64,000 nt of DNA, taken from assembly GCA_963844965.1 (NCBI GenBank), contig CAWJQC010000007.1:1-64000 (forward strand). The letters run 5' to 3'. Under the pieces are notes generated by a model. That model had not been told where the DNA came from and ran no database searches. It saw nothing but the letters and a program-made list of their open reading frames with translations. Position 1 is the stretch's first letter, and each line of letters begins with the position of its first letter. This stretch comes from an uncultured bacterium. Lineage in GTDB: Bacteria; Patescibacteriota; Minisyncoccia; UBA6257; 2-01-FULL-56-20. Both the position numbers and the translations under genes were made by a program. Positions 15,814 through 42,531 of this stretch are shown piece after piece.

Positions 15814-16896
15814 ATGCAAATCGTGAAGCAACAGCAATCCCAATTATTCAACGAAATGCCAACGAAAAATGCTGGCGTTTTGCCATCTACTCGTTATCAG
15901 GGGAGTAAATATAAAATTCTCAAATGGATTGATTACTGCACAAAAGACTTAGATTTTGATTCAGTCCTCGATGCCTTTGGCGGAACTGGTTGTGTCGGCT
16001 ATATGTATAAGAAAAATGGTAAGCAAGTTTTTTATAACGACTCCTTAAAATTCAATCATTACGTTGGGCTTGCTTTAATAGAAAATAAAAATACTACCTT
16101 GAACGATAATGATTTGGATTTAATCTTAAAGAAAAATCCGAAAGTAAAATATCCTTCTTTTATCTACGACACGTTTCACGATATTTATTTCACCGACGAG
16201 GAGAATAAGTGGCTTGATGTGGTCGTAACAAATATTAGAAACATTAAAGATAAATATAAAAGGGCCTTGGCGTATTATGCTTTATTTCAATCCTGCATAA
16301 TTAAGCGGCCATACAATTTATTTCATAGGAAAAATCTATATATAAGAACAGCAGAGGTAGAAAGGAGTTTCGGCAACAAAAAAACATGGGATACTCCGTT
16401 TGAGAATCATTTTCTCAAGTTTGTTGAGGAAGCAAACAGTGCCGTGTTTGATAATGGCAAAAAAAATCAAGCAGTCCATTCAGATATTTTCGGCCTAACC
16501 ATTCCGAAAATTGACCTTGTTTATATTGATACGCCATATATTTCTGAAAAAGGTGTGGGCGTAAATTATTTTGATTTCTATCATTTTTTGGAGGGCATTG
16601 TTTTTTATGATGAATGGCCGAAACTGATTGATGAAAATTCAAAACATAAAAAAATAAAGAACGGAAAAAATGAATGGTGTAATAATGGTGAGATACACGG
16701 TGCTTTTGAGCGACTGTTCGATAAATTCAAAAAATCAATTTTGGTCGTTTCCTATCGTGATGATGGAATTCCGACAATCTTGGAACTGGTAAATATGCTC
16801 AAAAATCATAAGAAGTCCGTTGAAATAAAAAAAATAGATTATAAATACGTTTTAAGTAGTGGCAACTCTAAAGAGGTTTTGATTATAGCGAAATAA
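15814..16896 (+). CDS. Dam-family (D12 class) N6-adenine DNA methyltransferase, cognate to the EcoRV-like endonuclease
   Basis: Motif I DAFGGTGCVG and motif IV DTPY (DPPY-like). Starts 3 nt after the endonuclease stop. Low GC content. Confidence 0.8.
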   Translation: MQIVKQQQSQLFNEMPTKNAGVLPSTRYQGSKYKILKWIDYCTKDLDFDSVLDAFGGTGCVGYMYKKNGKQVFYNDSLKFNHYVGLALIENKNTTLNDNDLDLILKKNPKVKYPSFIYDTFHDIYFTDEENKWLDVVVTNIRNIKDKYKRALAYYALFQSCIIKRPYNLFHRKNLYIRTAEVERSFGNKKTWDTPFENHFLKFVEEANSAVFDNGKKNQAVHSDIFGLTIPKIDLVYIDTPYISEKGVGVNYFDFYHFLEGIVFYDEWPKLIDENSKHKKIKNGKNEWCNNGEIHGAFERLFDKFKKSILVVSYRDDGIPTILELVNMLKNHKKSVEIKKIDYKYVLSSGNSKEVLIIAK

Positions 16897-27710: not shown

Positions 27711-28110
27711 AGGTCGGCCGTGATATATTAAGATTTTACGATAAAGTTACCGGCATGCGAAAATTTTTTAATAAACATCCAGAATTTACGCTTGCAGTTA
27801 TAGCTGCGGTATTTTTGATAATCATGGCCGCGTCCTACGTTTGGGGCGTCACGACGATTGTCACCAACGTGAGCAAGGCGACCAGTGTCGGAGAGGAAAA
27901 GATTCCGCAGGCTGGATTTGATATCCAAGGAGCCGCCGGTCTGGACTTAAAGGGGCTTATTCGTTAAAATCGGCTTTTGCGGGCATCTTAGCTTGCCCCG
28001 CCAAATTTTTGAAAGCGCCTTTAGGGCCGACGCTTGCGAGTCGGCCTCCCGACACCGACCAATGTCGGTCGTCGGGACTCAGTGGTAAGAATATTTTACA
28101 ACCAATTAAT

Positions 28111-28182
28111 GCGTCCTTAGCTCAGTGGCAGAGCGCTTGCATGACACGCAAGAGGTCGCAGGTTCAATCCCTGCAGGACGCA
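28111..28182 (+). tRNA. tRNA-Val (anticodon GAC)
   Basis: GCGTCCTTAGCTCAGTGGCAGAGCG CTTGC ATGACAC GCAAG ..GCAGGTTCAATCCCTGCAGGACGCA. Confidence 0.85.
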
Positions 28183-28329
28183 CACAGCAGTGACAGGTGT
28201 TTCACGACCGCGTCAGCCGACTCTTTCGCGCGACCGCGAGAGCCGACCCAGTTGGACGGAATCATCTTCACATACAAAATACCGTCGCAGAATTGCGGCG
28301 GTATTTTGTATTTCGGCTTCGCCTTTTCG

Positions 28330-29673
28330 CTATGCCGTTTCCTTCGGCATCAAGCTGATCACTCTATTCTTGAGCATCAGTCGGCTCTTGAGGTTCGACA
28401 ACAATTCCCGTTTTTCCGTGATCGTTCCTTCGGTCAGGATATATATCGCATAGGACTTAGCATCGAACGTCTCCGGCTCGGCGTTCTGCTCCCGGCTCTT
28501 GCCCAAGGCAATCCTTCGGAACTTGTTGTACCGCGTGATCTCGTCCTTGAATTTCTGCTTGATGCCAAGCTCGTTCATATCTAAGGTGTCCAGCATGGCA
28601 ATGATCTGTTCGATGATTTCCTCCTCCTTGATGTATCCACACTGGCAATTCACGTCACGTTTCTTTGTGCAGCCGTAATAAACGTATCGATGGGTATTGC
28701 CGTTTTTCTGGTATTTCCACTTCTCGGACGCAGTGATTCCTGACCCACACAAGCCGCAGGTTATCAATTTCGTGAAGGCGAATTCCTTGTCGTTTTTGAC
28801 CTCGCTCCGCTTCAGCTGCTCGCGCGCCCGGTCAAAGAGTTCTTTCGTGATAATTGGCGTATGCTGCCCCGTATACCAGTTTCCCGACCCCTCCGGGAAT
28901 TCAAAGACGCCGTAGTAGAAGGTTTTCTGCAGGATGATAAAGATGTTGGATAACGAGAGGTACTTCCCGTTCGTCGTCTTGAATTTTAGATCATTCTTGA
29001 GCCACAGGTAGAGACGCCGTCCCGACCACTGATCATTCGCCACCTTCTCAAACATCTGGCGGATGACGGGAGCTCGAACTGGATCCACGATCACCTCGCA
29101 GGGCTTGTCCTTGCGCTTTTCGTTCAGGTATCCCGTCGGCGCGATGGATGGCCGCAATCCCTGCTCGCAACGTGTTCGCAACCCTCGCTTCACGTTTTCC
29201 GATTTGTTGTCGTTCTCAAGTTTCGCTGTCGAACACAGAATCATCAGCATAAACTTCTCGCTTGGGTTGTTCGTAAATTTCTGACTGAAGGTTCTGATTT
29301 CGATTAAGAGTTTCTGGTCCATGAGATCGACGAGCGAACCGAGATCACCAGCATTGCGGCTAAGACGGTCCGGTGCCCACGTAAGGATGCCGTTGAATTT
29401 GCCATCTTTGATATCTTTGAGGAGACTATTGAATACCTCACGCTGGCCGACGGCTTTCGCGGAGTGCGATTCCTTCCTTATCTCCACGATCTCAAGTCCG
29501 TCGCGCTCGGCGACCCGGGTCATCTCCTTGATTTGCGAATCAATACTCAGGACTTGTTGCTCCTCAGATTCCGTTGATTTTCTTGCGTATAAACAGTATG
29601 CGACCTTTATGGGAAGCGGTTGATTGGTTGAGGTCGCCGCTCCCACCGACCCCTTGATTAGGTTTGTCATCAA
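28330..29673 (-). CDS. large serine recombinase (integrase)
   Basis: N-terminal resolvase catalytic domain (YARKSTESEEQ..S.), a recombinase domain and a zinc ribbon (CGLCG...C.C). Lies about 150 nt from tRNA-Val. Confidence 0.85.
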   Translation of the reverse strand: MMTNLIKGSVGAATSTNQPLPIKVAYCLYARKSTESEEQQVLSIDSQIKEMTRVAERDGLEIVEIRKESHSAKAVGQREVFNSLLKDIKDGKFNGILTWAPDRLSRNAGDLGSLVDLMDQKLLIEIRTFSQKFTNNPSEKFMLMILCSTAKLENDNKSENVKRGLRTRCEQGLRPSIAPTGYLNEKRKDKPCEVIVDPVRAPVIRQMFEKVANDQWSGRRLYLWLKNDLKFKTTNGKYLSLSNIFIILQKTFYYGVFEFPEGSGNWYTGQHTPIITKELFDRAREQLKRSEVKNDKEFAFTKLITCGLCGSGITASEKWKYQKNGNTHRYVYYGCTKKRDVNCQCGYIKEEEIIEQIIAMLDTLDMNELGIKQKFKDEITRYNKFRRIALGKSREQNAEPETFDAKSYAIYILTEGTITEKRELLSNLKSRLMLKNRVISLMPKETA

Positions 29674-29831
29674 GACAAGAGATGATGCGAACCCACGAGG
29701 GCGTCCAGGATGGTCGAGTTGATAACTGATGGGTCGCTACAAGGCTATGAAGGAGCGAGGAAGGCAAGTTGATTGATTTAGCGAGATGCTGAATGCCATA
29801 TTCGGAGAGAAAAAACTGCTGGAGTTTACAA

Positions 29832-30308
29832 TTATTTTTTTGGAAAAAGTCCAGCCATTATAACCACAATCACAAGGGCTGGAGAAATTATCTTCAGGCC
29901 CCAAATCGATATCAGAAAAACAGTAAGAGAGGACAGGCCCGGATTTCCCGCCCCAACCGCGTTTAAAAACGCCATCACGAGAACAAACAAAAAGAAAATG
30001 GTGAATGTCAGTATGTTAATTAACGCGTAAAATAATTGCGAGATTTTGTTTTTAAATAAATCGAAGAAAATATATGCCAATAAATAAGTAATAACAGTCC
30101 ACGAGGTACCGAGAACCATTTTGTCCGCCTCAGACCTGTTATAGATATTAGAAAAATTATATATTAGGCCGACAAAAAATATAGAAATTACGACCAAAAA
30201 CTGTAGCCTATTTCCAATCTCTAAAAGACCAGCTCTATTTGGCGCCCTCGTCGCAAGCTTTCTAATTTTACGCCACAGATTTTTATTCATGGTTTCGGCC
30301 CAAGCCAT
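29832..30308 (-). CDS. hypothetical polytopic membrane protein (AT-rich)
   Basis: 158 aa with 4 TM helices in a low-GC segment. Confidence 0.4.
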   Translation of the reverse strand: MAWAETMNKNLWRKIRKLATRAPNRAGLLEIGNRLQFLVVISIFFVGLIYNFSNIYNRSEADKMVLGTSWTVITYLLAYIFFDLFKNKISQLFYALINILTFTIFFLFVLVMAFLNAVGAGNPGLSSLTVFLISIWGLKIISPALVIVVIMAGLFPKK

Positions 30309-30544
30309 GTTAAATAATTACGCCCAAATTTTACTCCGCTGGCAATAAAAAACAAGGCCGCTGCGGTCGGCGGCAGTTGGCTTATTTTTCCCACGGCACC
30401 GGCCTTTGTAGGATGTGCATTGGTTTGAAATCCGTCATCGCGGACTATTACATAACAGTGCCATCTGTGCGGCCCCCTTCAGAATTATCGATTTTATGCT
30501 ATTATAACGATAACAACTGAATATGCCTAAACCTCGCCACCGGC

Positions 30545-30670
30545 GGGGCATGGCACGAAAACCGGTCGGGGATAGAGAGCCCATCGTTTGGGAGCACCCT
30601 GACCGGTCGCATGCCGAAAGGTATGTGGGTGGCGCAAGCCATCGCCCAGCGGTGGGCTTTGTGGTTTCGC
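30545..30670 (+). ncRNA. unclassified structured RNA-like element, copy A (paralog of 40685-40807)
   Basis: About 70% identical to copy B. GAAA and GCAA tetraloop hairpins show compensatory changes between copies (catgcc/ggtatg vs tatctc/ggggtg; tggc/gcca vs tccc/ggga). Ends in GGGCTTT. The strand is assumed. Confidence 0.4.
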
Positions 30671-30701
30671 TACTGGCATAAAAATAAAACCGGTCAGGGT
30701 T

Positions 30702-32175
30702 ATGCCTAATAAACTATATTTTGGAGACAATTTAGATATTCTCCGAAACAAAATCGCCGATAGCTCGGTTGATTTAATTTATCTAGACCCGCCATTTCAG
30801 AGTGGCAAAAACTACAATCAAATTTTTCGTCCCGAAGAAGGCGAAATTCAAGGCGCAACCGCACAGATTCAAGCATTTGAAGACACATGGCAGTGGGGCC
30901 CCGAAGCAGAGAAAAACTACAACGGACTTATTGTGGGCGAAATCAATAAAGAGAAACCAAGTCAGAAACTGATTGACCTCATCAAGGCGATGCGTAGCTA
31001 TCTTGGCGAAGTGCCAATGATGGCATATCTCTCTATGATGGCTCCGAGGTTGCTCGAGATGCGTCGCGCACTAAAGAATACCGGCAGCATCTATTTGCAT
31101 TGCGACCCGACGGCAAGCCACTACCTCAAACTCCTTATGGACGCTATCTTCGGCCCAGAGCATTTTAGAAACGAAATCATCTGGCGCATCGGTTGGGTGT
31201 CCGGCTACAAGAACTCAGAAGCTAGGCTGGATTCGAAATCACGACACGCTCCTCTACTACACGAAATCAGACGAGTTTACGTTCAACAAGGAATATATAC
31301 CCTACCCGCCGGATTATGTCAGACGTGACGGCAAGAAACCCGAAGGGAAAGGCATCCCGATTGAGGATACGTGGAACTGCAATTCAGCCGATGTTCTCAA
31401 CTCCATCATGATCATGAGTTTTTCCACCGAGAAGGTGGGCTACCCGACTCAAAAACCAGAAAAACTTTTAGAGAGAATTGTTAAGGCGAGCTCAAATAAG
31501 GGTGACGTCGTTTTGGATCCATTCTGCGGCTGCGGCACTACAGTCGCCGTCGCTCAAAAACTCGGGCGGCAATGGGTCGGGATAGACATAACGTACCTTG
31601 CCATTGATGTTATAGCAAAGCGATTAGAAAAAAGTGGGTACAAAAAGGGCGATGACTTTGAAATCGATGGCGAACCGAAGGATGTTTATTCCGCAGAAAA
31701 GTTGGCCCAGCAAAAACCATTTCAATTCCAATTCTGGTGCATTGCCAAGATCAATGCGACACAATCAGCAATGAAATCGGGCGATCAGGGTATAGACGGC
31801 ATCATCAATTTTGTTGACTTCACAAAAAAGGACAAGGCGGGTAAGGGCATAGTCCAGGTTAAGGGAACCCAAACAGTTAATCCGTCAATGGTGCGCGATC
31901 TTAAGGGCACAATTAAAAGCCAGGAGGCAGATTTCGGCATTCTTATAACGCTTAAACCACCCACGCACGGCATGATCACGGAGGCGGGAAAAGAGGGTTA
32001 TTATGAATACACCTACGTACCAAATACTCCGCCGCAGAAGATACCGAGGATTCAGTTCTTGACTGCCGAAGATCTGTTCAAAGATCCATTGCCCATCAAG
32101 CTTCCTCCAGCCGTCATTTCGCCCTTCAAGAAGCCCGCTATCGAAGCCATAAAAGAAGAAAGGGGCCTGTTCTAG
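30702..32175 (+). CDS. N6/N4 DNA methyltransferase fused to a C-terminal Mrr-cat-like nuclease domain, split by a frameshift near 31210
   Basis: DPPF motif ([11 protein letters not shown]) in ORF 30702-31328. The +1 frame continues ...[19 protein letters not shown]... into ORF 31408-32175, which carries [23 protein letters not shown]. The C-terminus resembles an Mrr catalytic domain: [10 protein letters not shown]...IVQVKG...DFGILITL. Confidence 0.75.
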
Positions 32176-32264: not shown

Positions 32265-33137
32265 CTATTCACGAGAGAAAACAACCTGAGGGCGGAACCC
32301 CAAGTCGTCGTCCCGTGCGGCAGGGCCATCCCAGTACACGTCGGAGAGGCCACCGTAGCCTGAGCTGCCGCCATCGAGGCGCCTCGCGCCCTTCTGGTAA
32401 GAATCTTCAAACCATTCCCAGGTATTGGTATCGCCCCACTCGGGGTGATAGGCGTTGCCGATGAAGTTCCATTCAATGGCTCGCGGCAGGCGGAGACACT
32501 CTTCGGGCACGTCCATTGCCTCCGCTATGGCTTTTTTCACTTCCGGCTTGTTCAGCTCGTCCCAGGAGATGTTGAAGCGGGAGCCTTTCGTCTCAAAGTC
32601 CGTAATAATCTTCTTTTTCCTCAAGTCCTCCAAGACGGGTCTGAGAACGTCGTCCTTATATATTTGCTTGCCGCTCTCGTACTTCGGCTTCCCGCGGGTG
32701 TCGACGAGAATCCAGGAGGCGGGGAGCTTCAGGGCGTCCTTCGGCAAATCGTCCTTTTTAACATCGGCATAAAATTCAATTCCCCAACCATCGGCATATT
32801 TTTTGCCCGGCTTCTTTTTCCAACCAGGCAAATCGCGCTCTTCTGTTAGTTCTTCATCGGGCAAGTAATGGAGCTCGAAGCCCATTTCCTTCCACTTCTC
32901 GTATCGTTCGGGTGTGATTTCTTCCGGCAGCGGTGGAACCTCAACGTCGTAGCCGAAGAATTCCCTGAGTTTCTCGGTTTCCTGTTCCATTAGTTCCCTG
33001 AACTCTGCCGAGGATTCGGGCGCTTTCCTTTTCTCCTTCTCCGCCTCGCCCAATGCTTTTTCCACCTTCTTCTGGACGGTGGTTTTGTACTGGTCGGGGT
33101 TATACTCTTCGTAGATTTTGTAACCGGGGAAGGGCAT
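32265..33137 (-). CDS. DGR target protein 3 (C-terminal C-type-lectin/FGE-like variable domain)
   Basis: Paralog of 36921-37799 and 37889-38737. C-terminus reads WEWFEDSYQKGARRLDGG...GFRPQVVFSRE and contains VR3. Confidence 0.8.
   Translation of the reverse strand: MPFPGYKIYEEYNPDQYKTTVQKKVEKALGEAEKEKRKAPESSAEFRELMEQETEKLREFFGYDVEVPPLPEEITPERYEKWKEMGFELHYLPDEELTEERDLPGWKKKPGKKYADGWGIEFYADVKKDDLPKDALKLPASWILVDTRGKPKYESGKQIYKDDVLRPVLEDLRKKKIITDFETKGSRFNISWDELNKPEVKKAIAEAMDVPEECLRLPRAIEWNFIGNAYHPEWGDTNTWEWFEDSYQKGARRLDGGSSGYGGLSDVYWDGPAARDDDLGFRPQVVFSRE
32285..32390 (-). repeat. DGR variable repeat VR3
   Basis: 106-nt match to the TR at 36576-36681 with 10 mismatches, all at TR adenines (coding sense). 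Confidence 0.85.
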
Positions 33138-33142
33138 GGGGG

Positions 33143-35164
33143 TTATAAGTCTTTAGTATATTGAAGAATAACTTTTTGAACGGCCCGCGGCAATTTATTG
33201 ATGTCTTCAATGACTTCCGCGTCGGGCTTGTAGGTTTCTTTCACAGCGGCCCCAGATTCCGTCATCCCGAGTCCCAAAACAATCACTCCTTTCTCGCGAA
33301 GGGCTTTGAGATTTTTTTGAACAAGCTCCGCGTTTTCGCTTTCGCCGTCCGAGAGCACCACGATTACCTTGCGCCTTATCTTTTCTCGAATCTGTCGCTC
33401 GTCTTCTGGCGTCAACGATTTCAATACCTCATCAAGCGATAGATAATCCGGCGTTCCGCCGCCCGCGTTGTGCATTTTCTTCCAAATTGCGATGCGGTCT
33501 TTTTCCGATAGGTCTGGCGAGAGTTTTTTGAGTTCAGCGTCCCCGAAGTCGCCGAACGCTCTCGTTTCGGTTCTCACGCCCAAGCCAACCGGCGTACCGC
33601 TTTCGTACTCGGCCTCCTCAATTTCTTTTTGGAAATCCGCAAGCGATTCCAAGAAGAGAAGCTTGCTCTTCCGGTCCATTTCCAATTTTGATCCCTCGTT
33701 CATGGAACCGGACAGGTCGTTGATCAGGGTCATGTCAAGCGCACCGTATCCTTCCTCCTCCCGTTCTTTGCGCTCGACTTCTCGGAATGCCCTCGGCTCG
33801 CCGCCGCTTTTTGATTCAATGTACGCTTCCGCGATCGCGCCACCTTCTATTTCCTCTCCTTCCCTCTGAAGTTGTGGCCGCACTTTCCAGCGCCGCCGCA
33901 ATCTCCTTGTCACCACTTGTTTGAACACTTCTCGGAGTTCGGCGATGAGCGGTGCGATTTCTTTATATTCATTCCGATAGCCAATTATGTCCTCAGGGCT
34001 TACATTATGCTCTTTGGCCCACTGTTCAAGGATGCTTTGATCAAGCGACGGCATTCCGCCCCGTTCTTTCACGATCGTCTCCATTGTTTTCATGATTTTC
34101 TCCTCGTCTTTCGCGGATAACGGCTCGGGGTGCACATCTTCGTAAGTTTTATATTGCTTCTTGAAATTTTTTTCCGCTTCTTTTCGCGCCGCGCTCTCGC
34201 TCCCCTTATCTTTTTTCTTGTCTTTCTCTTTCCCGCCCTCTTCCTCTTTGCCCTTGCCGGCCTCGGCTTCTTTTTTCTTTTTGAATTTGTCCCACCATTT
34301 TTTATCCTGCTTTTGCTCGCCTTGTCCCCCCTGCCCTTCTTGAGGTTGGCCTTCTCCGGCCTCTTCCTGCCCCTTCCCTTTTTTACCCTTACCTTTCTGC
34401 GTTTCTTTCTCCAGGTCCTTGCGATAGAGCTCCATATAAACCGGCTCGACAACCTGGCGCATAAGCCTGAAGCGATCGCGCGGCTCTATCGTAGGAGTGG
34501 TTACGAGATCCAAAATATCCGTCTTGTCGCCGCCGAAGCTTCTGAGCTTATCGAGCGCTTCTTGGGCTTCGGGACCCACCATAACCTTTTCATCGGGGAC
34601 CATCATCTGACGTATAAAGCCGTAGACGAACTGGACGTGGGCCGCCAGTTCTTGTTCTTGCCCGGTCTTCGGGTCTTCCAGGCGTCGGTAGTCCGTCGCC
34701 GGAAACATTTTCTCTTTATATAAAGTTCGGCGCGTCTCCTCCAAAAATGGTAGTTCGGCGACGATACGCCGATTACCAAGCACATCTTCAAAAATATTAT
34801 GAAGGATGTGGAGCTGCGGTTTTTGCTGGCTGTATCGCTTCGCTTCTTTGAGTATGAACTCGGGGTCTCTCAAGAGCTCGCCGTAATGAGCCATAAGTTC
34901 GTGGGTTGTCGCAAAAAGGGTTTCTTTGAGATTGTAGCCGCGCTCGATAAAAAAGTTAGGATCGTAAATTAGCCGACGGTTTTCAAAATCGAACGCCCAG
35001 CCGTTATTGCCCCTATCAAGCGTGATATCGCCGCGCATGCCGTACGCGCCGAGAATCTCGCCCTCTCTATCGAAAAACGCTTCAATTTCGGATGGCGGCG
35101 CCTCCTTTTTCTCAGCGAGGACGGTATTCTCCTCTGGCGGTTTTTCTGGCGAGAATTTAGTCAC
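33143..35164 (-). CDS. vWA-domain protein with a highly charged Lys/Glu/Gly-rich central region
   Basis: C-terminal von Willebrand A domain with the MIDAS motif DLSGSM. Confidence 0.75.
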   Translation of the reverse strand: MTKFSPEKPPEENTVLAEKKEAPPSEIEAFFDREGEILGAYGMRGDITLDRGNNGWAFDFENRRLIYDPNFFIERGYNLKETLFATTHELMAHYGELLRDPEFILKEAKRYSQQKPQLHILHNIFEDVLGNRRIVAELPFLEETRRTLYKEKMFPATDYRRLEDPKTGQEQELAAHVQFVYGFIRQMMVPDEKVMVGPEAQEALDKLRSFGGDKTDILDLVTTPTIEPRDRFRLMRQVVEPVYMELYRKDLEKETQKGKGKKGKGQEEAGEGQPQEGQGGQGEQKQDKKWWDKFKKKKEAEAGKGKEEEGGKEKDKKKDKGSESAARKEAEKNFKKQYKTYEDVHPEPLSAKDEEKIMKTMETIVKERGGMPSLDQSILEQWAKEHNVSPEDIIGYRNEYKEIAPLIAELREVFKQVVTRRLRRRWKVRPQLQREGEEIEGGAIAEAYIESKSGGEPRAFREVERKEREEEGYGALDMTLINDLSGSMNEGSKLEMDRKSKLLFLESLADFQKEIEEAEYESGTPVGLGVRTETRAFGDFGDAELKKLSPDLSEKDRIAIWKKMHNAGGGTPDYLSLDEVLKSLTPEDERQIREKIRRKVIVVLSDGESENAELVQKNLKALREKGVIVLGLGMTESGAAVKETYKPDAEVIEDINKLPRAVQKVILQYTKDL

Positions 35165-35201
35165 GTTGTTTTGTTTATTATACCGCTTATACGCAAAAAA
35201 A

Positions 35202-36278
35202 TCAAATGATTTTCTTTATCATTTCCAGCCGCACCCCGCGAGACCGAGAATGCTTCACGAGCCCCAAATACGAGATGAAAGAATCTTTATTGAAACCGTT
35301 ATCCAATTTTTGGAGCATTCTCCGTTTTGTTTTTGTGCGCAAAATGCGGTGATGCGGAAAACAAACAAATCCGAGAAAATCTACGCCCTGATGATATTTT
35401 CTTATGGAAACTTTTTTGGGGTGCAGCTCGAGTTTGAGGTTTGCGTTAAGAAAATCGCTGATTTTTTCGATGTAGCTCGACAGAAGTTCCTTGTCCCTGT
35501 CCAAAATCACGAAATCATCGCAATAGCGCATATAATATTTTGCCCGCAAGATCGTTTTTACGAATTGATCGAGCTCATTCATGTAGATATTCGCGAAGAG
35601 TTGGCTCGTAAGGTTGCCGAGCGGCAACCCCTTGCCAGCTTCTTTGCTGAAACTGTCGATAATTATTTGGAAAAGGCTGAGGGCGCGCGGATCTTGTATT
35701 CGCCGCGCAAGAAGATTCTTCAATATCCCGTGGTCAATGGAGTTGAAAAAACTTTTGATGTCGCACTTCAGGGCCCAAACTGTTTTCGTGTTGTTTTTGG
35801 ATAATTTCCAGCCAAATTTGTGCAAGCGCTCGAGCGCGGCGTGAGCCCCCTTCTCGTCCCGGCAAGCGTAAGAATCAAAAATGAAGCGCAGATCGAATAT
35901 CGGCTCGATCACCCTGACGATCGCGTGATGTAAAACCCGGTCGCGAACCGGTGCTTTGTGGATGTGTCTTTTCTTCGGATCGAACACAAAAAACGATTTA
36001 TACGCGCCATGTTGATATTTTCCGTCCTTTAGCGTATAATGCAGGCAGAAAAGGTTATCTTCAAGATTGCGGGAAAATTCCATCACTTCCAGCTTCCGCG
36101 ATTTACCTCGTAAAAACTCATACCATGCAAACAACAAATTATTAGATGAAATAATGTTTTCATACACAACATGACTATCCAAACCGTCCCCGATAGAATG
36201 TTGGACCTCCCTATTTTCCATAAAACATACGATTTTATTATTGTATTTTCCAATTACGTCGTTAAGTTTCCCAAACAC
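35202..36278 (-). CDS. diversity-generating retroelement reverse transcriptase
   Basis: RT motifs including YMRYCDDFVIL (YxDD). The DGR hallmark LPLGNLTSQLFANIYM ([ILV]GxxxSQ) replaces the QGxxxSP of group II and retron RTs. 358 aa with no maturase or endonuclease domains. Confidence 0.88.
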   Translation of the reverse strand: MFGKLNDVIGKYNNKIVCFMENREVQHSIGDGLDSHVVYENIISSNNLLFAWYEFLRGKSRKLEVMEFSRNLEDNLFCLHYTLKDGKYQHGAYKSFFVFDPKKRHIHKAPVRDRVLHHAIVRVIEPIFDLRFIFDSYACRDEKGAHAALERLHKFGWKLSKNNTKTVWALKCDIKSFFNSIDHGILKNLLARRIQDPRALSLFQIIIDSFSKEAGKGLPLGNLTSQLFANIYMNELDQFVKTILRAKYYMRYCDDFVILDRDKELLSSYIEKISDFLNANLKLELHPKKVSIRKYHQGVDFLGFVCFPHHRILRTKTKRRMLQKLDNGFNKDSFISYLGLVKHSRSRGVRLEMIKKII

Positions 36279-36551
36279 GATCGCTTCACTCTCGGCGCGA
36301 GGATAGAAAACACCGCCGTCGAACTCTTAATGCTTATCATGCGGGCGAATTACGGGCAAGCCGTAGCGCGCGTCGGTTTTTTAAACGAAGGAAGTATCCT
36401 GCTCGATATGCTCAAGGTATTCGTGCGGCTCGCGAAGGATAAGAAAGCTATACACCCGAATCAGTATTTAATGCTCGAGGAACGGTTGCAGGAAATAGGC
36501 CGCATGCTCGGCGGTTGGATAAAGTCCTCAAGTGCAAAAAGACCCGTGTGA
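36171..36551 (+). CDS. avd: Avd-like four-helix-bundle protein (DGR accessory variability determinant family)
   Basis: FPKHDRFTLGARIENTAVELLMLIMRAN and LEERLQEIGRMLGGWI match the four-helix-bundle/Avd family. Lies opposite to the RT. A probable later start at M36198. Followed by a hairpin terminator at 36536-36566. Confidence 0.65.
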   Translation: MTIQTVPDRMLDLPIFHKTYDFIIVFSNYVVKFPKHDRFTLGARIENTAVELLMLIMRANYGQAVARVGFLNEGSILLDMLKVFVRLAKDKKAIHPNQYLMLEERLQEIGRMLGGWIKSSSAKRPV

Positions 36552-36575
36552 GCGGGTCTTTTTGTGAGATACGAT

Positions 36576-36681
36576 CTGAGGGCGGAACCCCAAGTTGTCG
36601 TTCCGTTCGGCAGGGTCATCCCAGTTCACGTTGGAGAGGCCACCGTTGTCTGAGTTGCCGCCATCGAGGCGCCTCGTGCCC
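36576..36681 (-). repeat. DGR template repeat (TR)
   Basis: 106 nt. Coding-sense translation is Asn/AAC-rich (..GNSDNGGLSNVNWDDPAERNDNLGFRPQ). It is the invariant partner of VR1-3, and every VR difference maps to a TR adenine. Confidence 0.88.
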
Positions 36682-36920
36682 GGTCCCAAGCCCATCTGTG
36701 TCCCAAACCATCCAAGGCAGCGGCAATTCGCAGAAAGCGTCTTGCCTGTATAAATATGGAGCGGTATTCCTTTGTTTAAAGGAAATCCGCATAAGTTTGG
36801 AGCACGTCGTTTCTCTCGTTTGTTGGGCGAACCGACGATCCGTAGATCCGGCTACATTAGCCCGCATAAAAAATTTACACCGAAATGCCCAAAGGAGCAA
36901 CAGCCCAATCCCCAAAGTTC

Positions 36921-37799
36921 CTACTCACGAGAGAAAACAACCTGAGGGCGGAACCCCAAGTCGTCGTTCCGTCCGGCAGGGCCATCCCAGTCCACGTGGG
37001 AGAGGCCACCGCGGCCTGAGTGGCCGCCATCGAGGCGCCTCGCGCCCTTTTGGTAAGAGTCCTCGAACCATTCCCAGGTATTCGTCTCACCCCACTTGGG
37101 ATAATAAAGATTTCCCATATAGTTCCATTCAATAGCTCTTGGAAGTCTCAGGGATTCGGGCGGAACGTCGAGTGCCTCCGCGATGGCTTTTTTCACTTCC
37201 GGCTTGTTCAGCTCGTCCCAGGAGATATTATAGCGAGAGTTCTTGACTTTGAAATCCGTGATTATCTTTTTCTTTCTCAAATCCTCAAGTGTCTCTGCCA
37301 GTATGTCTTCGGCATATTTTTGTTTGCCGTCTTGATAGTTGGGCTTTTCGCGGCTGTCCACGAGAATCCACGAGGCAGGTAGTTTGAGGGTGTCTTTCGG
37401 AAGATTGCCGTTCTTTACCTCGTCAAAAAACTCGATACCCCAACTCTTATCCGGAGTGTATCGCGTGCCCGGCTTCTTTTTCCAACCAGGCAAATCGCGC
37501 TCTTCTGTTAGCTCTTCATCGGGCAAGTAATGAAGTTCAAGCCCCATTTCTTTCCACTTTTCGTATCGTTCTGGTGTGATTTCTTCCGGCAGCAGTGGAA
37601 CCTCAACGTCGTAGCCGAAGAATTCCCTGAGTTTCTCGGTTTCCTGCTCCATTAGTTCCCTGAACTCTGCCGAGGATTCGGGTGCTTTCCTTTTCTCCTT
37701 CTCCGCCTCGCCCAATGCTTTTTCCACCTTCTTTTGAACGGTGGTTTTGTACTGGTCGGGGTTATACTCTTCGTAGATTTTGTAACCGGGGAAGGGCAT
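36921..37799 (-). CDS. DGR target protein 1
   Basis: 292 aa, paralog of targets 2 and 3. VR1 lies at its 3' end. Confidence 0.8.
   Translation of the reverse strand: MPFPGYKIYEEYNPDQYKTTVQKKVEKALGEAEKEKRKAPESSAEFRELMEQETEKLREFFGYDVEVPLLPEEITPERYEKWKEMGLELHYLPDEELTEERDLPGWKKKPGTRYTPDKSWGIEFFDEVKNGNLPKDTLKLPASWILVDSREKPNYQDGKQKYAEDILAETLEDLRKKKIITDFKVKNSRYNISWDELNKPEVKKAIAEALDVPPESLRLPRAIEWNYMGNLYYPKWGETNTWEWFEDSYQKGARRLDGGHSGRGGLSHVDWDGPAGRNDDLGFRPQVVFSRE
36942..37047 (-). repeat. DGR variable repeat VR1
   Basis: 10 mismatches to the TR, all at TR adenines. Confidence 0.85.
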
Positions 37800-37888
37800 G
37801 GTGTCAAATGAATGGTCTTATTTGTTTATTGTTATAAAATTTTTTTTGAAAGCCTACCAAAGAAACAAGAGAACAATTGTCAAAGTTC

Positions 37889-38737
37889 CTACTCACGAGA
37901 GAAAACAACCTGAGGGCGGAACCCCAAGCTGCCGAGCCGCTCGGCAGGGTCATCCCAGTCCACGTGGGAGAGGCCACCGAGGCCTGAGCCGCCGCCATCG
38001 AGGCGCCTCGCGCCCTTTTGGTAAGAATCTTCAAACCATTCCCAGGTATTGGTATCGCCCCACTCGGGGTGATAGGCGTTGCCGATAACGTTCCATTCAA
38101 TCGCTCGCGGCAGGCGGAGACACTCTTCGGGCACGTCCATTGCCTCCGCTATGGCCTTTTTGACTTCGGGCTTATTCAGTTCGTCCCAGGAGATGTTGAA
38201 GCGGGAGCCTTTCGTCTCAAAGTCCGTAATAATCTTCTTTTTCCTCAAGTCCTCTAAGACGGGTCTGAGGACGTCGTCCTTATATATTTGCTTGCCGCTC
38301 TCGTACTTCGGCTTCCCGCGGGTGTCGACGAGAATCCAGGCGTCGGGGAGCTTAGCAGCATCGGCAGGGATTTCGTTCGCCTCTAAGCGGCCATAAAACC
38401 AATCTCCAGGTTTCTTTTTCCACCCCGGGAAAGCGGCATCCTTCCTCATCTCTTCCGGGGGAAGGTAGTGCAATTCAAAACCCATCTCTTTCCATTTTTC
38501 ATAACGCTCGGGGGTAACTTCATCGGGTAAGGGCGGGACTTCAACCTCATGACCGAAGAAAGTGCTGAGAGATTCTGTCTCGCGATCTACCAGTTCCCGG
38601 AATTCCGCTGATTCCGGCGTCATTCTCCCTTTCTCCTTCTCCGCCTCGCCCAGTGCTTTTTCCACCTTCTTCTGGACGGTGGTTTTGTACTGGTCGGGGT
38701 TGTACTCTTCATAGATTTTGTAGCCGGGGAAGGGCAT
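37889..38737 (-). CDS. DGR target protein 2
   Basis: 282 aa paralog. The N-terminal 200 aa are ~80% identical to targets 1 and 3. Confidence 0.8.
   Translation of the reverse strand: MPFPGYKIYEEYNPDQYKTTVQKKVEKALGEAEKEKGRMTPESAEFRELVDRETESLSTFFGHEVEVPPLPDEVTPERYEKWKEMGFELHYLPPEEMRKDAAFPGWKKKPGDWFYGRLEANEIPADAAKLPDAWILVDTRGKPKYESGKQIYKDDVLRPVLEDLRKKKIITDFETKGSRFNISWDELNKPEVKKAIAEAMDVPEECLRLPRAIEWNVIGNAYHPEWGDTNTWEWFEDSYQKGARRLDGGGSGLGGLSHVDWDDPAERLGSLGFRPQVVFSRE
37900..38005 (-). repeat. DGR variable repeat VR2
   Basis: 13 mismatches to the TR, all at TR adenines. Confidence 0.85.
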
Positions 38738-38742
38738 CGGAA

Positions 38743-40419
38743 TTATTCTTTACCTTGCCACGCACGTAGGGTCTTCGCCGCGAGTCCAGGCACCTTGAAA
38801 TCTTCCGGCTTGGTGTCTTTGAAGAATTTATTCGCCATAAAGACGCGGATCATGTTTTCCCTGTCTTTGCTCGCGCGTCCGCTGATTTCCGCCTTATGGA
38901 AGAACTCGCGGAGAACCACGTTTCCGAGCGGATCTTTGAAGCCGCCGGCCTTCCACGCCTTCATAATTTCAATCTGGTCCTTCAAGGTGATGACGAGTTC
39001 TCGAAACGCAAGGCGGTCGCTCTTTGACAAGCTTTCTTCCGCGCCCTCCCGCACCGAGAGCGTGAAATCTTCCTGAATTTTGCGGCAGGCGGCGGCAAAG
39101 CGCTTCAGCTCATCAACTTTTTGCCCTGCTTCCGCTTCGCTCCATTGAATGTTGCCGTGGCGGTCGGCGAGAACGGCGGTCAAAATCTGCAACGTTTCCG
39201 GAGCGATATACTGCCCTTCTTTATTTTTCTTGCCGAGGTCCAAGTAATGTATTTCCCGCGCCCCTGCGCCTCCGATGAAGCGGCGAAGGGTCGCGACGTC
39301 CAGCTCATAGCGCTGCTTATATCGTTCTGATTTCAAGTTTGCCGTTGCCATAATCGGCGCGCGGATCGGAATTTCTTCCCCGGTCACCGGATGCTTCCAT
39401 GCGTCGCCGACGCGTTTCTGAAGAAGATCGTGCAAGATCCCCGCGAATTCGTGGGGCATAAGGTTGACTTCGTCCAAGATCACCGGGCGTCCTTCTTTTT
39501 GCGCCTTTACGAATTCGGAATAGTCAAAAACCGTCTCGCCCCCTTTGAGCCCTCGGCTCCCTATGATTTGTGATTCTTTGATTTGTTCTTGAATGGGGAT
39601 TAGGGCTGGGTCTCTCCTTAAGTATCTTTCGGAAATATATTTTGCAAGCTGCGACTTTCCGGAACCGGTTTCGCCCTGGAAAAGAACCGGCGCACCCTGC
39701 ATCAAATCCGGAAGTATGGCTCGGATCAATTCCGTACGCGATTCCGTTTCGGCGAAGCTGTAACGTTCGAGGTCGCGCTGCATGCGTCTGATTCCTCGCC
39801 GCTCCAACATATCAATCGTTTCGGGGTCCAATTCAAACTTCTGTAATCTTTCTTGAAGCTCAATCTTCCGAGCCGCCATGTTCGCCAATTTCTTGCGTTC
39901 AATCGGACCGGGCGCTCGCCCCACTTTCTCGAAAAGCATCTGGAGCTTTTCTTCGGCAGAAGTTATTGCGCCAAGTTCTTTCTCCGCATGTTCGTATTCT
40001 AACGCTTTTGCGAGCGTCTGTTTTTGTCTTTCAAATTTTTCTTTGTAAGCACGCAGCACTTCTGGATTGCTTGCTAATTCTTTTATACGAGCGTCGTATT
40101 CGTGAAGCGTGGTTTCCTGAAATTCCGCTAATTCTGGATCGAGCGAAAGAGCCTCAAGATGTGCGGCCATTTCTTTTTCGCCTTTGGCTTTGAGATCGGC
40201 GAGTTCCGTTTTGCTTTTCACGCCCCAGGCCTCATTCACATGTTTTGCGACCTCCGCGCGAGAAGCCGAAAACTCGGCGAGTTCGCTGACTCGCGATTCT
40301 AATTCTTCAGGCGACAGGGTTTTTTCTTTTTTCCCGGATTTTTGCGCGCCCTCCTTCTCAAGAACGATTTCGGGGGTAGTTTTTACCTCGGGAACATGTG
40401 GTATTTTTTCTGGGGACAT
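38743..40419 (-). CDS. MoxR-like AAA+ ATPase with a long N-terminal coiled-coil region
   Basis: Walker A GETGSGKSQLA, Walker B VILDEVN and a sensor region. It sits immediately upstream of DGR target 2 on the same strand. Confidence 0.75.
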   Translation of the reverse strand: MSPEKIPHVPEVKTTPEIVLEKEGAQKSGKKEKTLSPEELESRVSELAEFSASRAEVAKHVNEAWGVKSKTELADLKAKGEKEMAAHLEALSLDPELAEFQETTLHEYDARIKELASNPEVLRAYKEKFERQKQTLAKALEYEHAEKELGAITSAEEKLQMLFEKVGRAPGPIERKKLANMAARKIELQERLQKFELDPETIDMLERRGIRRMQRDLERYSFAETESRTELIRAILPDLMQGAPVLFQGETGSGKSQLAKYISERYLRRDPALIPIQEQIKESQIIGSRGLKGGETVFDYSEFVKAQKEGRPVILDEVNLMPHEFAGILHDLLQKRVGDAWKHPVTGEEIPIRAPIMATANLKSERYKQRYELDVATLRRFIGGAGAREIHYLDLGKKNKEGQYIAPETLQILTAVLADRHGNIQWSEAEAGQKVDELKRFAAACRKIQEDFTLSVREGAEESLSKSDRLAFRELVITLKDQIEIMKAWKAGGFKDPLGNVVLREFFHKAEISGRASKDRENMIRVFMANKFFKDTKPEDFKVPGLAAKTLRAWQGKE

Positions 40420-40684
40420 ATTATTGCAATTATAGTAGCAAGGCCTTTATTTCTCAAGACTTTCGATTGTTTCCATGATACCATAATAATATAACTGCGT
40501 CAAGTCGCGCGTTTTCGTTCCCGAACGACCCCTGCTCTATCCTCAAAAACCTTGTCAGGGTCTAACTACGAAGGCCCCTTCGCAAGTCCTCTGATCTAAG
40601 TTAGGGTGGATGCAAAGGTCGAAAAATCGTATAATCTCATTAACAACTGAATAACCTCAAAGGCAGAGCCGTAACCCTCGCGAA

Positions 40685-40807
40685 AAATCGTGCGGCATGG
40701 CTCGAAATCCGTCCTCGGTAGAAAGCTCCTAGTCAGAGCACCGGGGACGGTCATATCTCGAAAGGGGTGTGGGTCCCGCAAGGGATCGCTGGCTGGGAGC
40801 TTTTTAT
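40685..40807 (+). ncRNA. unclassified structured RNA-like element, copy B (paralog of 30545-30670)
   Basis: Same hairpin architecture as copy A with covarying stems. Ends GGGAGCTTTTTATTT, which looks like a terminator. Confidence 0.4.
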
Positions 40808-40860: not shown

Positions 40861-41421
40861 ATGGAAGAGCAAACAAAGAAATGCAGGGAGTGCAAGTCGG
40901 ACATTCCGGCTGGCGCCAAGCGATGTCCCAGCTGCCGAGCGGATCAAAGGAACTGGTTGATGCGCCATAAAGCCTTAACTGTCGTGGTGATATTTATAGC
41001 GCTCATTATCATAGCCATGGTTGCTGGTAGTAATAGCAATAACCCTAAACAGGTCGGCAATAACAGCCAGCCAGTCCCATCATCCCAAGAGCAGACGTTC
41101 AAGGTCGGCGATCACGTCCAGATGGGAAGCGATATCATAACGGTGAACAGCGCGGAGTTTTCGAGCGGTACAGAATTCGCAAAGCCAGCCGCTGGGAACA
41201 CCTGGTTAGACGTCAATCTGACGATACAAAACACGGACAACGCCCAGCAGTATATAACGACCATGGGACAGATGTTTGTTAAGGATTCCGACGGCAACAG
41301 TTACAACGTTTCGCCCACGGACAAAGAATTACAAAATCCATCGCTTGGCATGGACGGCCCGATTCTTGCCAACAGCAAAAAGACCGCTTGGGTAGGGTTT
41401 GTAAAGGATAGGTTTCTTTAG
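40861..41421 (+). CDS. zinc-ribbon/TM/DUF4352-like protein; its last 6 codons lie inside an IS3 terminus
   Basis: N-terminal CxxC...CxxC, one TM, then a beta-rich extracellular domain. The C-terminal ..VKDRFL* is encoded by the IS3 end TGTAAAGGATAGGTTTCTTTAG. Confidence 0.55.
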   Translation: MEEQTKKCRECKSDIPAGAKRCPSCRADQRNWLMRHKALTVVVIFIALIIIAMVAGSNSNNPKQVGNNSQPVPSSQEQTFKVGDHVQMGSDIITVNSAEFSSGTEFAKPAAGNTWLDVNLTIQNTDNAQQYITTMGQMFVKDSDGNSYNVSPTDKELQNPSLGMDGPILANSKKTAWVGFVKDRFL

Positions 41422-41456
41422 ACAGTGATTCGACGGCTTTTTGCCGTTTTTTTTCG

Positions 41457-42239
41457 TTAAGCCGCAATCTTCTCGGCAAACACGGACGGCGGCATCTTGA
41501 GGGCGGAGTGGATCCGCGTGTGGTTGTACTGCCACAAGGTGCTGTAGATCTCCGCCACGAGCTCGCCGAAGGTCCCGAACCGGTTGGGATCACCGAGGTC
41601 AATCTTGAACTTGTCATAGAACGATTCCTGGTAGCCGTTTTCCCATGGGGCACCGGGCCGCGACCGCGAGATCGTGATGCCACAGTCCCCCAGTGTATCG
41701 GTGAACGCTCGTGCCTTGTACTCGCTGCCGTTGTCCGAATGGAAGATGACCGGATGCGGATGGTGGAAAAGCGCGTTGGCCAGGGTCTGTATCGTGAGGG
41801 GCGATCCTTTCCGCAACGCCACATGGACGCCCATCAATCGTCTCGTGAAAAGATCGAGTATCGTGGACACGTACACTTTCTTGCCGCGATACAGGAACTC
41901 CGTGAAATCGGTTGCCCAGACGTGGTTCGCGTACGAGGGCATGATGGCAAGTAAGAGGTTCGGAAAGGCCCGCGATGCCTTTGATTTCCGGTATTTCCTG
42001 CCTCGCCTCCGGTACGGCCTTATGCCGAAGATTCGCATGACGCGCTGCGCTCGCGGACGGCTCACGCCCAGAGCTTGTCCCAAGCGCCGGGAACCGTATG
42101 CCGGATGGCGCTGCAATTCTTCTTCCATGCGGATCTTGAGCGCCCAATCTTTCTTGTCCTGCCGTGATACGTAGTAGAGCGATGCCCGCGAGACGCCCAT
42201 GGCCCGCGCCATGGCGGACTTGTTCCGCTTTTCCGTCAA
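41457..42239 (-). CDS. IS3 transposase OrfB (DDE integrase core)
   Basis: HSDNGSEY and PWENGYQESF motifs. 260 aa. Confidence 0.9.
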   Translation of the reverse strand: MTEKRNKSAMARAMGVSRASLYYVSRQDKKDWALKIRMEEELQRHPAYGSRRLGQALGVSRPRAQRVMRIFGIRPYRRRGRKYRKSKASRAFPNLLLAIMPSYANHVWATDFTEFLYRGKKVYVSTILDLFTRRLMGVHVALRKGSPLTIQTLANALFHHPHPVIFHSDNGSEYKARAFTDTLGDCGITISRSRPGAPWENGYQESFYDKFKIDLGDPNRFGTFGELVAEIYSTLWQYNHTRIHSALKMPPSVFAEKIAA

Positions 42240-42499
42240 TTCTTTTTTTGGGCCTGGGAGAGCTTCACGGTGAGCTCGCCCACCACTTCAAACAGCTCCC
42301 TGTTCTGCTTCTGGAGACGGCTGAACTCGCCCCAGGAAGGGACGCCCGATGCTCCTGCGCCTAGCCAATTGTAGATGGTGGACTCGTGCAAACCGTGGTC
42401 CTTCGCAGCCTGCGCTACGGGGACTCCTTCTTCCTTCACCCGGCGGAGGATGTCCGCCTTCACTTCCTTCGCAATCCGATGCCCTTTTTTGTTGCTCAT
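42236..42499 (-). CDS. IS3 transposase OrfA (HTH)
   Basis: 87 aa. Overlaps orfB at AAAAAAAG, the -1 frameshift site. Confidence 0.9.
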   Translation of the reverse strand: MSNKKGHRIAKEVKADILRRVKEEGVPVAQAAKDHGLHESTIYNWLGAGASGVPSWGEFSRLQKQNRELFEVVGELTVKLSQAQKKN

Positions 42500-42531
42500 G
42501 ACACAATGGTAGTTTGTTTCGACCTTTGTGT

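Follow-up and report, generated by a model that had tools for sequence, protein, structure and literature searches.

What could have placed more than 21 kb of DNA between two tRNA genes that are close neighbours in related genomes? We address this question for tRNA-Val(GAC) and tRNA-Ile(GAT) in a 64,000-nt stretch of contig CAWJQC010000007.1 (hereafter the window), part of the chromosome of an uncultured member of the Patescibacteria (candidate phyla radiation, CPR). An earlier reading of the letters alone (the sequence-only reading) had singled out the region just past tRNA-Val as the probable remnant of an integrated element. In this region a large serine recombinase (LSR), an AT-rich membrane-protein gene and a frameshifted methyltransferase-Mrr fusion precede a diversity-generating retroelement (DGR). 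Gene order in relatives indicates that the DNA between the two tRNA genes is a 21.4-kb inserted island, and we consider it likely, at a probability of roughly two in three, that this island was integrated by its LSR at the 3' end of tRNA-Val and that the region past tRNA-Val is its left end.

The case for an insertion comes from four syntenic relatives, here labelled, like all loci, by L numbers. In three of these (L002, L004 and L009) genes follow one another in the order relA, topA, dprA, a homologue of the ORF (open reading frame) at 27153, tRNA-Val(GAC), tRNA-Ile(GAT), RluA, pilins and T2SSE ATPase, with only 75, 67 and 741 nt, respectively, between the two tRNA genes; in the fourth (L011) the tRNA genes are also neighbours, 21 nt apart and in reversed order. 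All four lack the whole island block. In the window the same genes stand on either side of the tRNA pair, yet 21.4 kb separate tRNA-Val from tRNA-Ile. Because relatives keep the two genes adjacent within the same flanks, all of 28184-49554 is best regarded as inserted DNA, and tRNA-Ile, which relatives have immediately beside tRNA-Val, marks its right limit. The comparison with related genomes that the sequence-only reading had called for therefore upholds both an integrated element at tRNA-Val and a larger accessory island, and shifts the far end of the latter from about 40.8 kb to 49554. The word remnant, on the other hand, fits only in part: the LSR, the DGR and two 100%-identical copies of an insertion sequence (IS) are intact, and only the methyltransferase gene is broken. 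The best DprA matches among species-representative genomes come from metagenome-assembled genomes of the Patescibacteria/Parcubacteria group, several of them labelled Liptonbacteria or Saccharibacteria, at 48-55% identity.

The gene nearest the left junction encodes an intact LSR of the integrase type. Its translation matches Resolvase (PF00239, E=3.2e-22, residues 28-172), Recombinase (PF07508, E=7.5e-11) and Zn_ribbon_recom (PF13408, E=2.7e-10), contains the serine nucleophile motif YARKSTESEEQ and aligns over residues 30-382 with the solved SPbeta integrase YokA (E=7.8e-15). The LSR and tRNA-Val are convergent, the LSR stop codon lying 146 nt from the tRNA 3' end, close to the 150 nt or so given by the sequence-only reading. 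Between them sits a hairpin that is found in the same place in homologous loci. No tyrosine integrase (Phage_integrase, PF00589) was found among the island ORFs scanned with Pfam. Exact-protein look-ups of the LSR and of P0121, which is 100% identical to it, returned no record. PADLOC assigned the LSR, the membrane ORF and the VWA protein of the DGR to no defence system and gave only weak matches for the AAA_5 protein.

Does this recombinase have a habit of residing at tRNA genes? More than 8000 homologues are detectable, the closest being 86-92% identical and drawn from many CPR lineages, across which homologues at 80-92% identity are found; some homologues also lie on IMG/VR contigs. We surveyed 80 metagenomic and 33 IMG/VR loci together with four contexts of named homologues. 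A convergent tRNA gene starts 122-194 nt past the LSR stop in 8 of the 10 distinct loci above 78% identity. At 80-92% identity the adjacent tRNAs are Val-GAC (L082 and L084, both beside dprA), Val-CAC (L086), Arg-CCT (L085, beside murB), Leu-CAA (L088), Arg-TCT (L089), Arg-TCG (L090) and Lys-TTT (L091), and more distant homologues (46-66% identical) are found at Lys-CTT, Ser-TGA, Ser-CGA, Arg-TCT, Arg-GCG, Gln-TTG, Asp-GTC and Glu-TTC. Overall, a tRNA gene lies within 250 nt downstream of the LSR stop in 15 of 98 evaluable loci, convergent in all 15, when 1.6 would be expected from tRNA density (Poisson P=2e-10); no tRNA gene was found upstream of the LSR (0 of 103 loci). Since the clade occurs at tRNA 3' ends far above chance, the LSR is the plausible integrase of the island. 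Moreover, the LSR is 86-89% identical to its counterparts in L082, L084 and L088, where DprA, TopA and RelA are 43-67% identical; an LSR better conserved than the adjacent housekeeping genes indicates horizontal transfer. We also observed that some loci carry two LSR genes. In L082 a second, larger serine recombinase (652-2538) of 628 aa, with about 54% identity over part of its length, sits in the same tRNA-Val island 7.5 kb away from the first, and two LSR genes are likewise present in L089, L107, L119, L136 and L181.

The junction itself is conserved. Read towards the tRNA, the DNA at 28184-28212 has the form GGTC-N5-AAACACCTnTCACTG-N3-TGTG/C, where the slash marks the junction and the final C belongs to the tRNA. 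Across elements at different tRNAs, about 30 nt of this arm align right up to the tRNA end, and a CGGTC motif 13-27 nt from the junction is retained beside more distant LSR homologues. Because the arm is conserved next to different tRNAs, it belongs to the element rather than to the host. It also holds two 17-nt direct repeats, CGACCGCGnnAGCCGAC, at 28205-28221 and 28231-28247. Unoccupied tRNA-Val genes of relatives end in ...GCAC/A and their sequences diverge thereafter, which places the junction at or just past the discriminator base and leaves the tRNA whole. We considered whether the arm might be a structured RNA or part of the LOOT RNA described below, and rejected both ideas: RNAalifold found no consensus pairs and the LOOT covariance model gave E>0.2. 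An arm without an RNA fold and unrelated to LOOT fits a putative protein-binding DNA site.

Two further observations concern the arm. In L090 (around 10112-10150) it abuts a 36-nt tRNA 3' fragment that lies 16 nt from an intact tRNA-Arg(TCG), which suggests that at most about 38 nt of tRNA may be enough for a junction, or else that the fragment was carried along. In the window, AAACACCTATCACAA at 62057-62071 on the minus strand differs from the junction-arm motif at 2 positions; being inside an ORF (61609-62190) with no tRNA nearby, it is probably a chance match.

A scheme of integration can be sketched from these observations. The LSR at the island edge would integrate a circular element by recombination between attP and attB, the latter comprising the last 20-38 nt or so of the tRNA gene (the T-arm and acceptor end, which would form one half of attB) and its 3' flank. 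Crossover would take place at or just after the discriminator base (GCA/CA); a crossover past this base would leave the tRNA intact and create no long direct repeat. The LSR side would then retain attL, in which the tRNA end is joined straight to the element arm GGTC-N5-AAACACCTnTCACTG, and IS elements would have invaded the right part of the island later. The sequence-only reading had proposed to look downstream for att-like direct repeats of the tRNA-Val 3' end. None exists in the window: the 23-nt tRNA-Val 3' end has no second match anywhere in it, even with up to 3 mismatches allowed. Note that such a repeat is not expected for a serine integrase.

Table 1. Position, strand and supporting evidence of features within and at the limits of the island (coordinates refer to the window).
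Feature	Position	Strand	Basis and remarks
tRNA-Val(GAC)	28111-28183	+	ARAGORN; Rfam tRNA, 69.8 bits; intact host gene, its extreme 3' end forms the left junction
Conserved element-borne arm, proposed P' half of attL	28184-28271	-	Conserved beside seven tRNA species; position weight matrix (PWM) score 42 bits
18-bp hairpin, terminator-like both ways	28272-28311		Inverted repeat I4, 94% complementary; between convergent tRNA and LSR
LSR, integrase type, 446-447 aa, intact	28330-29673	-	Pfam PF00239, PF07508, PF13408; probable ATG at 29670
Conserved block upstream of LSR, AGTTATCAAC...CTGGAC...GGGTTGCGTCATCC...ATG	29674-29730	-	Alignment of related loci; blastn extents
AT-rich ORF, 158 aa, four hydrophobic segments	29832-30308	-	GC 0.375 versus about 0.50 around it; Kyte-Doolittle
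LOOT RNA, copy 1	30524-30643	+	Rfam RF03000, 89.6 bits; TATTAT/TATAAC -10-like box at 30500-30508; methyltransferase start 58 nt downstream
Beta-class N4/N6 DNA methyltransferase with C-terminal Mrr-like PD-QxK domain, split	30702-32175	+	Translations, homologue alignment, Pfam, structure model
DGR cassette	32265-40419	-	Pfam; mismatches between template repeat (TR) and variable repeats (VRs)
DGR targets	32265-33137, 36921-37799, 37889-38737	-	
VWA protein	33143-35164	-	
DGR reverse transcriptase (RT)	35202-36278	-	PF00078
Avd	36171-36551	+	PF22296
TR	36576-36681		
AAA_5 ATPase	38743-40419	-	
LOOT RNA, copy 2	40667-40787	+	Rfam, 83 bits; TATAAT at 40630-40635
Zinc-ribbon/transmembrane/DUF4352 gene	40861-41421	+	Pfam DUF4352
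1154-bp IS with rve (DDE) transposase, two inverted 100%-identical copies	41400-42553, 45774-46927		Self-blast; Pfam rve
Second N4/N6 methyltransferase	42532-43794	-	Pfam N6_N4_Mtase; between the IS copies
Further rve transposase ORF	46503-47675		Pfam; right end of island
IS200-like Y1 transposase	47692-48129	-	Pfam, E=9e-39
Weak HAD-like ORF	48582-49235		Pfam
tRNA-Ile(GAT)	49555-49627	+	ARAGORN; right limit of inserted DNA

What does the island carry? Its cargo is of a modular kind that varies between elements and often includes a DGR (Table 1). That the left-end block abuts a DGR, as the sequence-only reading had it, is confirmed by the RT, Avd, TR and three VRs, each of which shows 11-14 adenine-specific mismatches. 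In the core, mismatches occur only at TR adenines, and the few others fall outside the TR-VR homology delimited by blastn (36576-36681). In L085, the LSR at tRNA-Arg(CCT) has as its direct neighbours an RT, an Avd and AAA_5 and VWA proteins that are 67% and 68-69% identical, respectively, to those of the window, and DGR genes also adjoin the LSR in L084, L088, L089, L127, L174, L175 and L182. Cassettes in which a DGR with several paralogous targets is accompanied by conserved AAA_5 and VWA accessory genes recur beside LSRs at different tRNAs, suggesting that CPR DGRs can be island cargo. The AT-rich membrane-protein gene noted beside the LSR is present as described; it has no Pfam or PADLOC match, and L084 carries an ORF of the same length beside its LSR, yet we detected no homology between the two.

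Two copies of the LOOT RNA (Rfam RF03000) are found in the island, both matching the full model (positions 1-121) above the gathering threshold of 46.4 bits. The sequence-only reading had suggested that a structured element, which it called element A, might help to delimit the island. This element turns out to be LOOT, each copy of which leads a cargo gene downstream. We discarded the idea that the two copies bound the element, as LOOT recurs as a leader before diverse genes. The arrangement of LOOT followed by a methyltransferase-Mrr gene is also seen in L199, which encodes the closest homologue (78% identical protein, LOOT 53 nt upstream), and in L176; LOOT followed by a zinc-ribbon/DUF4352-like gene is also seen in L176, L107, L130, L099 and L148. 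With a covariance model built from five instances, we found LOOT in 35 of about 115 LSR loci (including L091, L099, L102, L107-L110, L114, L122, L124, L131, L145, L155, L159, L161, L169, L175-L177 and L183). In seven loci it follows the LSR stop by 23-60 nt on the same strand, and in at least 12 it is divergent from the LSR and located 127-270 nt upstream. LOOT is strongly linked to this LSR clade.

Rfam classifies LOOT as a small RNA (sRNA) gene. Here, an ORF on the same strand follows and a -10-like box precedes it. Across the window and related loci, 36 of 39 instances have a same-strand ORF 1-95 nt further on, and the products of these ORFs include zinc-ribbon/DUF4352-like proteins, small membrane proteins, nuclease-like proteins (among them a PLD-domain protein) and methyltransferases. 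By eye, a TATAAT-like box and TAACAAyTGAATA stand ahead of LOOT in the two window copies and in LSR-adjacent loci. These features suggest that LOOT, rather than being a free sRNA, may act in cis as a promoter-proximal leader for cargo genes of mobile elements. LOOT goes unmentioned in the main text of the 2017 Weinberg paper. In the window (30644-30680) and in L109, L114, L122 and L159 we also noticed, by eye only, that a segment following LOOT (for example cggcgagcTTTGTGTT) has its complement inside LOOT, GCTCGTCG, and that a U-rich tract comes next; this segment may be a terminator or an expression platform.

The gene led by the first LOOT copy is indeed, as the sequence-only reading had recognized, a frameshifted N6/N4 methyltransferase with an Mrr_cat-like C-terminus. 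A single extra A (a 1-nt insertion at 31212/31213) splits it into ORFs 30702-31328 and 31408-32175, the +1 frame being open from about 31201 to 32175. Alignment places the lesion precisely: where full-length homologues read GYK-TQK(R/K)GW, the window has AAG-A-ACT-CAG, and the alignment reveals no other disruption of the gene. Once repaired, the 490-aa protein matches N6_N4_Mtase (PF01555, E=2e-46) and Mrr_cat (PF04471, E=8.7e-8; 32.7 bits against a curated cut-off of 21), and PF22722, a family described as inactive restriction endonuclease (REase), also matches (E=1.2e-6). Motif IV, DPPF (residues 29-32), lies N-terminal to motif I, DPFCGCG (about 273-279). Because the frameshift parts motif IV from motif I, which binds S-adenosylmethionine, the window copy is probably inactive as a methyltransferase.

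Regarding the C-terminal domain, the Mrr-type signature has an invariant D (in IDG), an invariant K (in QVK) and a nearly invariant Q across 26 aligned sequences. When the last 191 residues are modelled with AlphaFold (pLDDT, the predicted local distance difference test score, 78.5), the elements come in the order alpha-beta-beta-beta-alpha-beta, as in the restriction-endonuclease fold. Searching PDB structures with this model, Foldseek returned weak matches only (best E=5e-3, none at E<=1e-3), namely the RPB5 N-domain, EcoO109I, Bse634I and Can2. By sequence, the nearest solved relatives are the beta-class methyltransferases CcrM, M.MboIIA and M.RsrI; no structure recovered by the PDB sequence search covers the Mrr-like domain. 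PADLOC matched the protein to generic methyltransferase models only, and our literature search, which turned up only a paper on Shedu nucleases, found no experimental work on the C-terminal domain of such proteins. In the homologue alignment, two alternative middle regions, which contain the target-recognition domain (TRD), lie between conserved ends, as expected for enzymes that diversify their specificity. We read the gene as encoding a putative element-borne modification enzyme with a predicted nuclease-fold domain, which may protect the DNA of the element.

The combination of methyltransferase and REase-like domains in a single chain had been considered of interest in itself. It proves to be common: at least 8000 homologues of the METHYLTRANSFERASE-Mrr fusion are detectable at E<=1e-10, and nearly all of the best 120 have 480-560 aa and combine PF01555 with PF04471 or PF22722. 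Among cultured phages, full-length homologues are present in the Mycobacterium phages Dori (gp42) and Amgine (gp37) and in a set of Streptomyces phages, among others; 28 phage records cover at least 80% of the query. The methyltransferases of Dori (gp42) and of Streptomyces phage OzzyJ share its length and domain order at 40-47% identity over 91-97% of the protein. Homologues are also found on plasmids of Actinobacteria and rhizobia, and phage and plasmid copies alike are annotated simply as DNA methyltransferase. Three close homologues lie on phage-like or conjugative-like contigs that resemble mobile elements, with secretin, TraC and integrase genes or with several methyltransferases and ParB, and no separate nuclease domain is present among their annotated neighbours. 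Homologues occur near LSR homologues in six loci (L097, L168, L176, L185, L186 and L189). The phage and plasmid family in which an N4/N6 methyltransferase is joined to an Mrr_cat/NA-iREase1-like domain is usually solitary on mobile elements; the window copy differs in being frameshifted and LOOT-led, the latter in common with its closest homologue. Type IIG/IIC enzymes (MmeI, BcgI, Eco57I) likewise unite a nuclease fold, a methyltransferase and a swappable recognition region in one chain. In those enzymes, an N-terminal PD-ExK nuclease is followed by a gamma-class methyltransferase and TRD, whereas the window protein has the methyltransferase first and the nuclease-like domain last, belongs to the beta class (PF01555) and carries the Mrr-type D...QxK. 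A Type IIG identity of the MmeI or BcgI kind can be dismissed on account of the reversed domain order and the different methyltransferase class.

Several observations weigh against an LSR-integrated island of 21.4 kb. No attR was found. Neither the window nor, in eight other loci, the 10 kb upstream of the LSR contains a second copy of the arm, inverted or direct. A pattern search for attR gave chance-level matches only, and a PWM scan of the window and eight related loci yielded nothing above 15 bits, when true arms score 35-44 bits in 7 of 8 loci (16.5 bits in L090). A free attP was not recovered from IMG/VR, where the arm pattern gave two matches, both in coding DNA without an LSR or tRNA nearby. 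Inter-element DNA homology, as seen with blastn, extends upstream of the LSR start by no more than about 100 nt, so that the case for mobility in one piece rests on recurrent cargo at the protein level and not on shared ends. Furthermore, the syntenic relatives are distant (DprA 48-55% identical), so that the insertion can be dated only loosely and several stacked events are possible. Finally, the GC content of the island (0.506) is no different from that of its flanks, and the window, L082 and L084 share an LSR at one tRNA-Val/dprA locus, which may partly reflect vertical inheritance.

Could the mobile unit be smaller than the island? Imagine that only the LSR, some 150 nt of downstream arm and some 100 nt of upstream block, 1.6-1.7 kb in all, moved by itself and that the other 20 kb accreted at a hot spot. 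This would account for nucleotide homology between elements spanning at most 28109-29769 and for wholly different cargo beside close LSR homologues (L086, at 92% identity, shares nothing else). It would also sit well with the tRNA-Val/tRNA-Ile spacer being a recurrent insertion target, as in relatives this spacer holds a 741-nt insert with an ORF (L009) or a pseudo-copy of the tRNA-Ile 5' half (L004). However, it would leave the company that the LSR keeps unexplained: 67-69% identical DGR accessory genes accompany it to tRNA-Arg(CCT) in L085, DGRs stand beside it in L084, L088 and L089, and LOOT-led genes and the second-methyltransferase family are found beside LSR homologues in dozens of loci. 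There is also no inverted arm upstream of the LSR, and we regard so small a unit as unlikely. We hold it to be very unlikely that the locus is a vertically inherited variable region in which a domesticated recombinase, controlling for example DGR or surface genes, sits near a tRNA through conserved gene order. The shared tRNA-Val/dprA position of the window, L082 and L084, an island GC content equal to that of the genome and the missing attR would all be in keeping with domestication, yet close homologues reside at six other tRNA species in unrelated contexts (such as beside murB in L085), the LSR is far more conserved than its housekeeping neighbours, four syntenic relatives lack the block and homologues occur on IMG/VR contigs.

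A third scenario dispenses with the LSR altogether. A 20-nt exact direct repeat, AGCTTGCCCCGCCAAATTTT, occurs 101 nt upstream of tRNA-Val (27990-28009) and 148 nt upstream of tRNA-Ile (49387-49406), each copy preceded by a tRNA-5'-like fragment, GGGCAyyTAG. The pair encloses tRNA-Val and the island; a promoter motif, a duplication and an old recombination core are all conceivable origins. The segment might have been inserted or duplicated through this repeat, taking tRNA-Val along, by tyrosine-type or homologous recombination. The repeat has only two full copies in 64 kb, and no shuffle reached the 3 matches observed when up to 3 mismatches were allowed. Nevertheless, we give this route hardly any credence: tRNA-Val is already at this position in relatives, no tyrosine recombinase was found among the island ORFs scanned, the repeat may be a promoter or leader motif shared by two tRNA genes, and the junctions of LSR arm and tRNA elsewhere would go unexplained. 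A separate doubt attaches to the methyltransferase-Mrr gene, which might be intact in the organism if the extra A were an assembly or sequencing error or a minority variant. Only one lesion is present; apart from it, neither half shows a stop or an indel when aligned with homologues at 78% identity, and the catalytic motifs are all kept. The insertion, on the other hand, sits in an AA dinucleotide rather than in a long homopolymer, and homologues include no intact version at 90% identity or more, the best reaching 78%. An exact look-up of the split methyltransferase ORF returned no record and no independent assembly covering the gene; the equivalent look-up of DprA yielded a single 4-kb contig, which stops short of the tRNA. 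On balance, an intact gene appears rather doubtful.

We therefore return to an island integrated by its LSR and ask how it compares with known systems. The integrases of SPbeta (SprA/YokA), TP901-1, A118/LI, Bxb1 and phiC31 have the same three-domain layout as the window LSR, which matches YokA and TP901-1 Int, and in phages and integrative and conjugative elements with large serine integrases the gene likewise lies at the edge of the element and the junction has no long direct repeat. To our knowledge, characterised large serine integrases target protein-coding genes or specific intergenic sites; in contrast, at least 15 tRNA species have a member of this clade at their 3' end. The 3' ends of tRNA genes are the textbook target of tyrosine integrases, and islands of that classical type (P4, the lambda family) resemble ours in lying at a tRNA 3' end, in being absent from syntenic relatives and in carrying modification, variable-surface and IS genes. 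Unlike them, the window island has no Phage_integrase domain among its scanned ORFs and no duplicated tRNA 3' segment, and its tRNA is left whole. The largest survey of LSR targets covers protein-coding targets only and leaves tRNA unmentioned (PMC10083194), and in a global survey of DGRs those of CPR are regarded as cellular in essence (PMC8144416). In the literature we found no description of LSRs that target tRNA ends or of LSR-borne DGRs in CPR, which is weak evidence.

From these comparisons, the island is of the ordinary tRNA-flanking kind, with a broken modification gene, and exposes a probably undescribed habit of a widespread LSR clade. One might generalize further and suppose that this CPR clade uses the extreme 3' end of almost any tRNA as its attachment site, recognising the conserved T-arm and acceptor end and crossing just past the discriminator, and so mobilises DGR-bearing and LOOT-led islands, with LOOT acting as a cis leader and the 'cellular' DGRs of CPR being in part mobile cargo. 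We advance this broader proposal tentatively, as a possibility that falls somewhat short of even odds. If it holds, a clade at many tRNA ends would widen the known target range of LSRs and constitute a natural integrase family with a conserved, ubiquitous landing site. It would also offer DGRs and modification genes a vehicle for horizontal transfer in CPR, a group of whose mobile elements little is known, and LOOT, an orphan RNA motif, would gain a genomic context, beside LSRs and ahead of cargo genes, that comparative genomics suggests.

The right third of the island is filled by IS elements. Between the two copies of the 1154-bp IS lie 3.2 kb with the second methyltransferase gene and two unassigned ORFs. 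Each copy shares 22 nt with the end of an adjoining ORF, and the pair points to recent transposition or to a composite transposon. In more than 25 loci, a homologue of the second methyltransferase lies 4-6 kb upstream of the LSR. Nearer the right limit, a perfect 20-nt inverted-repeat pair (47718-47737 and 48141-48160) has one arm inside the 3' end of the Y1 transposase gene and the other just past its start. Debris of tRNA genes surrounds tRNA-Ile: two 5'-like fragments lie upstream of it (49335-49352 and 49371-49388), and downstream (49672-49708) there is a 37-nt 3' fragment with a terminal CCA.

Elsewhere in the window, at 15026-16896, a restriction endonuclease resembling EcoRV (E=1e-96) and an adenine methyltransferase of the D12 class are encoded beside parB at a GC content of 0.32-0.34; they form a separate, probably acquired Type II restriction-modification system. 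Extra T-arm-like fragments, GGTTCGAnTCC, are present on the plus strand at 7711-7721, beside tRNA-Ser (7812-7904), and at 12274-12284, beside tRNA-Leu(TAA) (12337-12422). The latter fragment is identical to the T-loop of tRNA-Leu(CAA) at 11585-11595, and both may be traces of other tRNA-targeted insertions.

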